Positions 9,001 through 18,000 of a DNA stretch of 64,000 nucleotides are shown in pieces; positions within the stretch are counted from its first letter, which is position 1; the number at the start of each line of letters is the position of its first letter. This DNA is from Escherichia coli. Lineage in GTDB: Bacteria > Pseudomonadota > Gammaproteobacteria > Enterobacterales > Enterobacteriaceae. Location of the stretch: the NCBI RefSeq assembly GCF_050320075.1, contig NZ_CP190018.1, one strand, 5' to 3'. The position numbers are program-made.

Positions 9001-12000
9001 TGCCTGGCAGCGGTTATTGAAAGTTGCACGAACCATTGCTGATATTGATCAGTCCGACATTATCACACGTCAGCATTTGCAGGAGGCAGTTAGCTATCGT
9101 GCCATTGACCGTTTGCTCATCCATCTGCAAAAACTACTGACATAAAAAAAAGGGCATTTCGCCCTTTTTATTAATCGTCAGAATCGGTGTAGTCTTCAGC
9201 ACCTTCAACCTGCGGTTTACCGCCGGAAAGGGTGTGAAAACGTTTTGGACGCTTGATACGCGTCATATACTTGGACCACACGCGTTCTGCTTCTGTCACT
9301 GGCTCACGTTCGCCACGGCATACTGCTACGAAGAGTTTCTCTTCCTCGGTAACCGGCTCGCGTTTGCCAAGATCCAACTCATTGAAGGCATAACCATGAC
9401 GCTCAAGCAGTTGTGCCTCTTTGATGGTGAAGTCACCATGACGAGAGAATCCACGTGGATAATGTTTATTGTCGAAATATCGATTAGTCGTCGTAAAGCT
9501 TTCCGCCATCCTGCACGCTCCTAATTCTTTGACCGAGCTAGTTATGGCGCGGAGTATTAGTTACGCTTGACAGAGTGTAAAACAAAACATTTAAATCATA
9601 ACGACAAATAATTTTGCGGAGAGCACTGTGGATACGGAATTGTTAAAAACTTTCCTGGAAGTTAGCCGAACGCGTCACTTTGGTCGAGCGGCTGAATCGC
9701 TCTATCTGACCCAATCAGCCGTGAGCTTTCGAATCAGACAACTGGAAAATCAACTGGGTGTGAATCTTTTCACCCGCCACAGAAACAATATCCGTTTAAC
9801 CGCCGCCGGAGAAAAGCTTCTGCCTTATGCAGAAACGCTCATGAGCACCTGGCAGGCCGCCTGTAAGGAGGTGGCGCATACCTCACGACATAACGAGTTT
9901 TCTATCGGTGCCAGCGCCTCATTGTGGGAATGTATGCTTAATCAGTGGCTGGGACGTTTGTATAAAAATCAGGATGCCCATACAGGCTTACAGTTCGAAG
10001 CGCGAATTGCCCAACGGCAGTCTCTGGTAAAACAGCTGCATGAACGCCAGCTTGATCTTCTTATTACTACTGAAGCGCCCAAAATGGACGAATTTAGCAG
10101 TCAGTTGCTCGGGTATTTCACTTTAGCGCTTTATACCAGTGCCCCTTCCAAACTAAAGGGAGATCTTAACTATCTGCGACTGGAATGGGGGCCAGATTTT
10201 CAACAGCATGAGGCAGGTTTGATCGGTGCTGACGAAGTTCCCATTCTGACAACCAGTTCTGCTGAACTGGCACAGCAACAGATTGCGACGCTTAATGGTT
10301 GCACCTGGCTACCCGTCAGTTGGGCGCGTAAAAAGGGCGGCCTGCATACCGTTGTCGATAGCACAACACTTTCACGGCCGCTTTATGCCATATGGCTGCA
10401 AAATAGCGATAAAAATGCGTTGATTCGCGATCTATTGAAAATTAACGTGCTGGATGAAGTGTATTAATCTGAATGGCTGGCAAGGATGCCGGTAGAAGGA
10501 TTTACTTCGGAGAGGTTATTTCAGATAAAAAAAATCCTTAGCTTTCGCTAAGGATGATTTCTGGCAGGGGCGGAGAGACTCGAACTCCCAACACCCGGTT
10601 TTGGAGACCGGTGCTCTACCAATTGAACTACGCCCCTAATTAGGGTGGCGGAACGGACGGGACTCGAACCCGCGACCCCCTGCGTGACAGGCAGGTATTC
10701 TAACCGACTGAACTACCGCTCCACCGAATTCTTTTACAACCACCGGTTTTATGACCGGCTTACTGCTTAATTTGATGCCTGGCAGTTCCCTACTCTCGCA
10801 TGGGGAGACCCCACACTACCATCGGCGCTACGGCGTTTCACTTCTGAGTTCGGCATGGGGTCAGGTGGGACCACCGCGCTAAGGCCGCCAGGCAAATTCT
10901 GTTTTATTAACCCGCTTACCGCCGGTTAATTTAATCTGTATCAGGCTGAAAATCTTTCTCTCATCCGCCAAAACATCTTCGGCGTTGTAAGGTTAAGCCT
11001 CACGGTTCATTAGTACCGGTTAGCTCAACGCATCGCTGCGCTTACACACCCGGCCTATCAACGTCGTCGTCTTCAACGTTCCTTCAGGACTCTCAGGGAG
11101 TCAGGGAGAACTCATCTCGGGGCAAGTTTCGTGCTTAGATGCTTTCAGCACTTATCTCTTCCGCATTTAGCTACCGGGCAGTGCCATTGGCATGACAACC
11201 CGAACACCAGTGATGCGTCCACTCCGGTCCTCTCGTACTAGGAGCAGCCCCCCTCAGTTCTCCAGCGCCCACGGCAGATAGGGACCGAACTGTCTCACGA
11301 CGTTCTAAACCCAGCTCGCGTACCACTTTAAATGGCGAACAGCCATACCCTTGGGACCTACTTCAGCCCCAGGATGTGATGAGCCGACATCGAGGTGCCA
11401 AACACCGCCGTCGATATGAACTCTTGGGCGGTATCAGCCTGTTATCCCCGGAGTACCTTTTATCCGTTGAGCGATGGCCCTTCCATTCAGAACCACCGGA
11501 TCACTATGACCTGCTTTCGCACCTGCTCGCGCCGTCACGCTCGCAGTCAAGCTGGCTTATGCCATTGCACTAACCTCCTGATGTCCGACCAGGATTAGCC
11601 AACCTTCGTGCTCCTCCGTTACTCTTTAGGAGGAGACCGCCCCAGTCAAACTACCCACCAGACACTGTCCGCAACCCCGATCAGGGGCCAACGTTAGAAC
11701 ATCAAACATTAAAGGGTGGTATTTCAAGGTCGGCTCCATGCAGACTGGCGTCCACACTTCAAAGCCTCCCACCTATCCTACACATCAAGGCTCAATGTTC
11801 AGTGTCAAGCTATAGTAAAGGTTCACGGGGTCTTTCCGTCTTGCCGCGGGTACACTGCATCTTCACAGCGAGTTCAATTTCACTGAGTCTCGGGTGGAGA
11901 CAGCCTGGCCATCATTACGCCATTCGTGCAGGTCGGAACTTACCCGACAAGGAATTTCGCTACCTTAGGACCGTTATAGTTACGGCCGCCGTTTACCGGG

Positions 12001-15000: not shown

Positions 15001-18000
15001 TCCTGTTTGCTCCCCACGCTTTCGCACCTGAGCGTCAGTCTTCGTCCAGGGGGCCGCCTTCGCCACCGGTATTCCTCCAGATCTCTACGCATTTCACCGC
15101 TACACCTGGAATTCTACCCCCCTCTACGAGACTCAAGCTTGCCAGTATCAGATGCAGTTCCCAGGTTGAGCCCGGGGATTTCACATCTGACTTAACAAAC
15201 CGCCTGCGTGCGCTTTACGCCCAGTAATTCCGATTAACGCTTGCACCCTCCGTATTACCGCGGCTGCTGGCACGGAGTTAGCCGGTGCTTCTTCTGCGGG
15301 TAACGTCAATGAGCAAAGGTATTAACTTTACTCCCTTCCTCCCCGCTGAAAGTACTTTACAACCCGAAGGCCTTCTTCATACACGCGGCATGGCTGCATC
15401 AGGCTTGCGCCCATTGTGCAATATTCCCCACTGCTGCCTCCCGTAGGAGTCTGGACCGTGTCTCAGTTCCAGTGTGGCTGGTCATCCTCTCAGACCAGCT
15501 AGGGATCGTCGCCTAGGTGAGCCGTTACCCCACCTACTAGCTAATCCCATCTGGGCACATCCGATGGCAAGAGGCCCGAAGGTCCCCCTCTTTGGTCTTG
15601 CGACGTTATGCGGTATTAGCTACCGTTTCCAGTAGTTATCCCCCTCCATCAGGCAGTTTCCCAGACATTACTCACCCGTCCGCCACTCGTCAGCAAAGAA
15701 GCAAGCTTCTTCCTGTTACCGTTCGACTTGCATGTGTTAGGCCTGCCGCCAGCGTTCAATCTGAGCCATGATCAAACTCTTCAATTTAAAAGTTTGATGC
15801 TCAAAGAATTAAACTTCGTAATGAATTACGTGTTCACTCTTGAGACTTGGTATTCATTTTTCGTCTTGCGACGTTAAGAATCCGTATCTTCGAGTGCCCA
15901 CACAGATTGTCTGATAAATTGTTAAAGAGCAGTGCCGCTTCGCTTTTTCTCAGCGGCGCGGGGTGTGCATAATACACTTTCCCGCTACAGAGTCAAGCAT
16001 TTATTTTTGCTTTCTCTGTTGAGATTCTCAGGAGAACCCCGCTGACCCGGCGGCGTGTTTGCCGTTGTTCCGTGTCAGTGGTGGCGCATTATAGGGAGTT
16101 ATTCCGGCCTGACAAGAGGAAATTTAAAATAATTTTCTGACCGCGCATTTTTTCAGCAAAAGCCCCGTTAATGTGCCATAAAACAAGCAATTTGCCGTTT
16201 TTGCAACCGTAATCACACTTCCTGGTGGCATACTAAGGAGGAATAAAAAGAAAAAGGAAGATTAGTAATGCCTTTAAGCGCACAACAGTTAGCTGCACAG
16301 AAAAACCTTTCGTATGTTCTGGCTGAGAAGCTGGCGCAACGCATCTTAAAAGGTGAATATGAACCCGGCACCATTTTGCCTGGTGAGATTGAGCTGGGCG
16401 AGCAATTTGGAGTGAGTCGTACAGCGGTACGCGAAGCGGTCAAAACGTTAACGGCAAAAGGGATGGTTTTACCGCGACCGCGAATTGGTACCCGGGTCAT
16501 GCCACAATCAAACTGGAATTTTCTTGATCAGGAATTGCTTACCTGGTGGATGACAGAAGAGAACTTTCATCAGGTCATCGATCACTTTCTGGTTATGCGT
16601 ATCTGTCTGGAGCCGCAAGCTTGCCTACTGGCTGCAACGGTTGGCACCGCGGAACAGAAGGCGCATCTCAATACGTTAATGGCCGAAATGGTGGCATTAA
16701 AAGAGAACTTTCGCCGTGAACGCTGGATTGAGGTCGATATGGCTTGGCATGAGCATATCTATGAAATGAGCGCCAATCCGTTTTTGACCTCATTCGCCTC
16801 GCTATTCCATTCGGTTTATCACACTTACTTCACGTCAATTACCAGCGACACAGTGATAAAGCTGGATCTGCACCAGGCGATTGTCGATGCGATTGTCCAA
16901 AGCGATGGCGACGCGGCATTTAAAGCTTGTCAGGCGCTGCTACGCTCACCTGATAAGTGACAACCCGATAACAGGACATTGAATGAGCGATAAAAAGAAG
17001 CGCAGTATGGCGGGTTTGCCGTGGATCGCGGCGATGGCCTTCTTCATGCAGGCACTTGATGCCACTATTCTGAATACCGCCTTACCCGCAATCGCTCATA
17101 GCCTTAATCGTTCTCCTCTCGCGATGCAATCAGCCATCATCAGTTATACGCTGACGGTGGCGATGCTTATTCCGGTAAGCGGATGGCTAGCCGATCGCTT
17201 CGGTACGCGTCGCATATTTACCCTTGCCGTGAGTCTGTTCACGTTGGGTTCTCTGGCCTGCGCACTTTCTAACTCGCTACCACAGCTGGTTGTCTTCCGG
17301 GTTATTCAGGGGATAGGCGGCGCAATGATGATGCCTGTTGCTCGGCTGGCCTTACTGCGCGCTTATCCTCGTAATGAGCTTCTTCCTGTATTGAATTTTG
17401 TCGCCATGCCGGGTCTGGTGGGGCCAATTTTAGGCCCCGTTCTTGGCGGCGTGCTGGTCACCTGGGCAACCTGGCACTGGATATTTTTAATCAATATCCC
17501 CATAGGTATTGCGGGCCTTCTTTACGCGCGCAAACATATGCCCAATTTCACCACCGCACGACGCAGATTCGATATCACTGGCTTTTTGCTGTTTGGCCTT
17601 AGCCTTGTTCTCTTCTCAAGCGGAATAGAGCTATTCGGGGAAAAGATTGTCGCCAGTTGGATTGCCTTGACGGTAATTGTCACCAGCATCGGGTTACTGC
17701 TTCTCTATATTCTCCATGCACGACGCACGCCAAACCCATTAATTTCATTAGATTTATTTAAAACCCGCACTTTCTCGATCGGTATCGTAGGCAATATTGC
17801 AACCCGTCTGGGGACCGGCTGTGTACCGTTCCTTATGCCATTGATGTTACAGGTAGGATTTGGTTATCAGGCGTTTATTGCCGGCTGTATGATGGCACCG
17901 ACAGCGTTAGGTTCCATTATTGCAAAATCGATGGTTACCCAAGTCTTACGTCGTCTGGGCTATCGCCATACGTTAGTGGGGATCACGGTGATTATTGGGC

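Follow-up and report, generated by a model that had tools for sequence, protein, structure and literature searches.

An intact rRNA operon beside oriC in a non-K-12 Escherichia coli chromosome, assigned to rrnC, and its allelic differences from K-12

The ribosomal RNA (rRNA) operons, rrn, of Escherichia coli have a P1 promoter with an UP element, Fis input and sensitivity to guanosine tetraphosphate (ppGpp) and DksA, and they rely on boxA/Nus-factor antitermination. RNase III cuts the duplexes formed by the flanks of the large rRNAs, while RNase E and RNase P mature the 5S rRNA and the transfer RNAs (tRNAs). In K-12 MG1655, the rrnC operon is arranged as rrsC-gltU-rrlC-rrfC-aspT-trpT (NC_000913.3, 3,941,808-3,947,032). 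The genes aspT and trpT are located downstream of rrnC (PMC5179076), and trpT is a single-copy gene, so that the rrnC transcription unit is essential because it holds the sole tRNA-Trp gene (PMC11480407). Here we analysed 64,000 nucleotides of an E. coli chromosome (contig NZ_CP190018.1, assembly GCF_050320075.1; hereafter the window) and describe a complete rRNA operon on its minus strand, which extends from P1 with its UP element to the terminator at positions 10527-16138. We assign this unit, with a probability of about 0.98, to the rrnC operon of a non-K-12 E. coli strain. The operon is intact and lies at its usual locus adjoining the replication origin; it is the well-known rrnC and shows nothing novel.

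The rRNA genes were located with Rfam covariance models, and tRNAs were searched with ARAGORN over the whole window (Table 1). The 16S, 23S and 5S models were all matched from end to end on one strand and in that order, with none cut off; the 5S match spans 10777-10892 with 93.2 bits. For the whole window, ARAGORN gave three tRNAs and no others, each on the minus strand and within the operon. Among them, trpT is the only tRNA-Trp gene; in K-12, it is the only one in the genome. A sequence-only reading of the window had proposed a complete rrnC-type operon running from P1 and P2 through 16S, tRNA-Glu, 23S, 5S, tRNA-Asp and tRNA-Trp to a terminator on the minus strand, and every one of these parts was recovered by Rfam, ARAGORN or a consensus scan. 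Its range of 10562-16140 was right at the upper end, where the UP element has its upstream edge, but it began at the 3' end of tRNA-Trp and so left out the terminator.

Table 1. Parts of the rRNA operon, in order of transcription. Positions are those of the window.
Feature	Position	Strand	Basis and remarks
UP element of P1	16117..16138	minus	A+T-rich AGAAAATTATTTTAAATTTCCT, read from the sequence
Promoter P1	16088..16115	minus	-35 TTGTCA (16115-16110), 16-bp spacer, -10 TATAAT (16093-16088)
P1 discriminator		minus	GCGCCACC, G+C-rich, after the P1 -10
Promoter P2	15969..15996	minus	-35 TTGACT, 16-bp spacer, -10 TATTAT; 10/12 consensus
Leader boxA	15919..15931	minus	TGCTCTTTAACAA, motif match to TGCTCTTTAAMAA
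16S rRNA gene rrsC, 1542 nt	14246..15787	minus	Rfam SSU, 1575.6 bits, model positions 1-1533 of 1533
Spacer tRNA-Glu(UUC), gltU	14085..14160	minus	Rfam and ARAGORN (anticodon ttc); 0 differences from K-12 gltU
Spacer boxA, upstream of 23S	13999..14011	minus	TGCTCTTTAAAAA, motif match
Pre-23S leader segment	13899..14007	minus	Rfam label StyR-44, 123.9 bits
23S rRNA gene rrlC, 2903 nt	10989..13891	minus	Rfam LSU, 2874.3 bits, model positions 1-2925 of 2925
23S-5S spacer	10895..10988	minus	Includes the rare hairpin allele at 10906-10930 (ATTAACCGGCGGTAAGCGGGTTAAT)
5S rRNA gene rrfC, 120 nt	10775..10894	minus	Extent by K-12 alignment; T at position 13 (window 10882)
Distal tRNA-Asp(GUC), aspT	10646..10722	minus	Rfam and ARAGORN; 0 differences from K-12 aspT
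Distal tRNA-Trp(CCA), trpT	10562..10637	minus	Rfam and ARAGORN; 0 differences from K-12 trpT
Intrinsic terminator	10527..10555	minus	9-bp stem ATCCTTAGC/GCTAAGGAT, GAAA loop, then a T run

On the one hand, the assignment to rrnC rests on gene content and locus. We compared the operon with all seven K-12 operons, that is, rrnC and the other six, which were retrieved for this purpose. The tRNA content alone identifies rrnC, because no other K-12 operon has both a tRNA-Glu spacer and the distal pair of Asp and Trp genes. The flanking genes are annotated as yieP upstream and hdfR downstream, and the map yieP, 16S, tRNA-Glu, 23S, 5S, tRNA-Asp, tRNA-Trp, hdfR is common to K-12 MG1655 and to the urine isolate Ec-U3 (NZ_CM192149.1), whose rrnC region was the best match to the window (6 mismatches in 8501 bases). 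This arrangement is general in the species: of the 5426 complete E. coli genomes, 5391 covered at least 80% of an 8.5-kb query across the operon and its flanks, and identity reached 99.9% in the best matches. The annotated K-12 oriC maps to window positions 31620-31851 with 98.3% identity, about 15.5 kb upstream of P1. Considering that transcription proceeds toward lower coordinates, the operon is therefore read away from the origin, as the sequence-only reading had expected. In the window, oriC sits between mnmG and mioC.

On the other hand, the sequence between and around the genes also follows K-12 rrnC, with which the operon shares its gene order, flanks, orientation to oriC, P1 with its UP element and leader boxA. 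No differences were found in the three tRNAs, the 5S-aspT and aspT-trpT spacers and the terminator. The 16S-23S spacer has 354 nt, as in K-12 rrnC and rrnE. Overall, the operon is about 1.3% divergent from K-12 rrnC: 7 differences are found in the promoter and leader, 15 in 16S, 6 in the 16S-23S spacer, 24 in 23S, 12 in the 23S-5S spacer (where the hairpin is of another allele and there is one extra A) and 1 in 5S. The 7 promoter and leader differences fall in the 453 nt upstream of 16S, where the other six K-12 operons show 71-177.

The 16S gene has 1 difference from K-12 rrsH as against 15 from rrsC, every variant base being present in at least one K-12 operon, and the 23S gene differs from those of K-12 at 16-30 positions, which cluster in a few hairpins. 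Likewise, the promoter-proximal variant cluster at 16019-16024 is the allele of K-12 rrnG. Taken by itself, the nearness of 16S to rrsH, together with the identity of the 23S 3' end, the 23S-5S spacer and 5S to rrnD of other strains, would favour the idea that this is another operon, such as rrnH, which has a distal tRNA-Asp, or one of rrnB, rrnE and rrnG, which have a tRNA-Glu spacer. However, the identity of an operon is set by its locus and tRNA content, and the yieP and hdfR flanks with a Glu spacer and distal Asp and Trp genes are those of rrnC only. The upstream region and the 5S-aspT spacer agree with this, the gmhB and dkgB flanks of rrnH and the murI and murB flanks of rrnB are absent, and likenesses inside the rRNA genes are what gene conversion produces. 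Accordingly, we give the idea of another operon next to no weight and retain rrnC.

In several of these hairpins, the pairing is kept. At 23S positions 137/142 and 2785-2810 and in the 16S helices 70-102 and 995-1045, both alleles form the same or an equivalent hairpin with similar energy. At 23S 2204-2214 and 1724-1736, the minimum-energy folds of the two alleles, obtained by folding short windows, differ in shape but have similar energies.

The 23S-5S spacer is the most divergent segment of the operon, and the hairpin at 10906-10930, just upstream of 5S, holds 11 of its 12 differences from K-12. Within an otherwise ordinary operon, this hairpin is the one mildly unusual feature. This hairpin allele occurs in none of the seven K-12 operons and in 248 of the 5426 complete genomes (about 4.6%), where the median is 2 places per genome. 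For three unrelated carriers, the match listed for the allele is in rrnD. The rrnD copies of strains 7/2 and M2021-10044802/2-E are 100% identical to the window from about 23S position 2797 through the 3' end of 5S, although they lie at another locus, which adjoins yhdZ, and have an Ile and Ala spacer, a distal thrV and a second 5S gene. A few bases past 5S, the divergence between these copies and the window is complete, and the window resumes rrnC-specific sequence. This pattern indicates that the 3' end of 23S, the spacer and 5S form a patch of gene conversion between operons.

An rrnD-like spacer and 5S within rrnC could also have been produced by an assembly that collapsed or mis-joined rrn repeats, considering that rrn operons are classic trouble spots of assembly and that the rare allele was seen in rrnD of three other strains. 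We consider such an artefact very improbable. Ec-U3, which was assembled independently, carries in rrnC a spacer allele identical to that of the window, the junctions are clean, with rrnC-specific sequence directly after 5S, and the median of 2 places per carrier is consistent with a true presence of the allele in more than one operon. A gene-conversion patch thus remains the preferred reading of this segment.

The hairpin lies just upstream of the cut site of the 5S precursor. The allele might be suspected of altering 5S precursor processing or an operon-specific 5S output, having been imported from an unsampled lineage and not being a neutral variant. Two exact-pattern scans of about 100,000 species-representative genomes gave no match to it, a weak negative, as draft assemblies often lack rrn operons or collapse them and as only exact matches counted. 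The pairing is kept by compensatory changes, with -11.6 kcal/mol for the rare allele and -11.1 kcal/mol for the other. We regard a functional import as quite unlikely, as against a neutral variant that gene conversion has spread.

The sequence-only reading had also noticed that 5S differs by one base from its reference sequence, and took this as ordinary inter-operon heterogeneity. Compared with K-12 rrfC, 5S has exactly one difference, G13->T at window position 10882. The word ordinary holds, but the cause named was imprecise, as T13 is found in none of the eight K-12 5S genes, in which positions 11-13 read CCG or CAG, and yet it is the commonest allele in the species. We took a census of the 5S forms in the 5426 complete genomes, using 40-mers in which every 28-base megablast seed spans the variant. 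The T13 form was found at 18,903 places in 4178 genomes (median 5 per genome), the G13 form at 14,227 places in 4295 genomes (median 3) and the A12 form at 9,953 places in 5317 genomes (median 1). The census is essentially complete, because the three forms add up to about 7.9 copies per genome, as expected for 5S genes. In 4002 records, the best A12 place has a further mismatch; K-12 rrfF has A12 and two other changes, and we interpret most of these records as probable rrfF-like copies.

T13 is the commonest 5S allele in E. coli. The absence of T13 from all eight K-12 MG1655 5S genes might at first suggest an error of sequencing, or else a mutation that is private to this rrfC and possibly deleterious, but T13 is found at more places than G13 across the species, and Ec-U3 carries T13 in rrnA, rrnC and rrnE, with G13 in rrnB. 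We give the error or private mutation no credence. The difference is an ordinary one, is not specific to rrnC and mainly reflects the use of a K-12 reference for a strain other than K-12. A search of the accessible literature on heterogeneity at 5S position 13 found nothing relevant. Brownlee, Sanger and Barrell reportedly described in 1968 a G/U difference at position 13 in MRE600 and a C/A difference at position 12 in a K-12 strain, which agrees with the allele pattern measured here.

The agreement with Ec-U3 extends well beyond the operon. Ec-U3 and related clinical isolates have essentially the same operon allele, with T13 in 5S and the rare hairpin in the spacer, and across window positions 14221-64000 Ec-U3 is collinear with the window, the 49.8 kb showing 3 mismatches and 1 gap. 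The source strain is a near-identical relative of this urinary isolate. Accordingly, we place the window as the oriC-proximal region of a non-K-12 E. coli chromosome from a lineage very close to Ec-U3. The rrnC of Ec-U3 differs from that of the window at 23S positions 2204, 2208, 2214 and 2796 and at one 16S position, and at the four 23S sites the window has the allele of Ec-U3 rrnA, rrnB and rrnE. The sequence-only reading had proposed an alignment to the other rrn operons of the same genome. This was run on Ec-U3 as a proxy and took in rrnA, rrnB, rrnC and rrnE, four operons out of seven, a minor caveat to our assignment, which no result contradicts; in this alignment, T13 was common to rrnA, rrnC and rrnE.

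The regulatory parts are those of a K-12 rrn operon. A consensus scan for promoters and terminators over 10400-16400 on both strands gave only two sigma-70-like sites, P1 and P2, both on the minus strand upstream of 16S. P1 matches the consensus at 11 of 12 positions and is identical to P1 of K-12 rrnC, rrnA, rrnB and rrnG; its start is presumably the A at about 16079, by analogy with rrnB P1. The role of the UP element is established for rrnB P1. Over this stretch, the UP element of the window has the same bases as K-12 rrnC, rrnA and rrnB, and it would be expected to function in the same way. P2 has one difference from all K-12 operons in its spacer, T at 15976. This C->T change lies 2 bases upstream of the -10, is present in none of the seven K-12 operons and is present in Ec-U3. 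An extended -10 created by the change was ruled out, as there is no TG at the needed position.

By chance, 0 matches to the boxA motif TGCTCTTTAAMAA would be expected in the window; there are two, both within the operon. The 16S flanks cofold into a long duplex with -75.8 kcal/mol and the 23S flanks into one with -31.3 kcal/mol. The latter has about 18 bp and is formed by the 3' end of the pre-23S leader segment with the sequence just after 23S. Judged by their pairing, both duplexes may be taken as the expected processing stems. The leader segment carries the label of StyR-44, which is listed in Rfam as a non-coding RNA of Salmonella Typhi; the match overlaps the spacer boxA and lies directly upstream of 23S. 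It seems to be part of the pre-23S leader and not an independent gene.

The terminator was the top terminator-like match of the scan and lies directly 3' of tRNA-Trp. It folds with -14.3 kcal/mol and is identical in sequence to that of K-12. The consensus scan found neither a terminator nor a sigma-70-like promoter between 5S and aspT, and the distal tRNAs may also have their own promoters (PMC5179076). On the plus strand, hdfR converges on the rrnC terminator across a gap of 95 bp (10467-10560), in which the terminator is the sole strong hairpin; read on the plus strand, this hairpin has an A run before it and no T run after it.

Based on these parts, on their identity to K-12 sequences that have been characterised by experiment and on established knowledge of E. 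coli rrn operons, from which we infer co-transcription, antitermination, processing by RNase III, RNase E and RNase P, regulation and termination after trpT, the operon would work as follows. RNA polymerase would start at two promoters in tandem, a P1 preceded by the A+T-rich UP element and then P2, and the leader and spacer boxA would render it resistant to termination. It would then produce one long precursor containing 16S, tRNA-Glu, 23S, 5S, tRNA-Asp and tRNA-Trp, in which the stems of the 16S and 23S flanks would be cut before the mature RNAs are trimmed out. Transcription would stop at the hairpin and U run right after tRNA-Trp. Directed away from oriC at a distance of about 15.5 kb, the operon would be transcribed co-directionally with replication. 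The sequence differences from K-12 are the usual variation between alleles, which gene conversion redistributes among the seven operons.

The value of this analysis lies in annotation and orientation, in the position of the genome's only tRNA-Trp gene, and in a textbook case of concerted evolution of rrn operons; no open question is touched.

Elsewhere in the window, three further stretches were noticed. At 42154-42311 on the minus strand, Rfam matched the enterobacterial small RNA STnc410 with 187.7 bits, in a position that is intergenic between atpC and glmU by mapping to Ec-U3. At 7054-7343, also on the minus strand, Rfam matched Rev39 5'UTR with 158.8 bits, just upstream of yifB and divergent from it; by the gene order of K-12, this would be the ilvL/ilvG leader region. 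Between yieH and phoU, at about 50780-54750 (from positions 9468-13441 of the Ec-U3 locus L013), the annotation of the Ec-U3 counterpart lists the type III secretion system (T3SS) effector EspY4, a truncated type III effector pseudogene and an IS1 transposase. K-12 carries the bgl operon near this position, so the stretch appears to be a strain-specific replacement.

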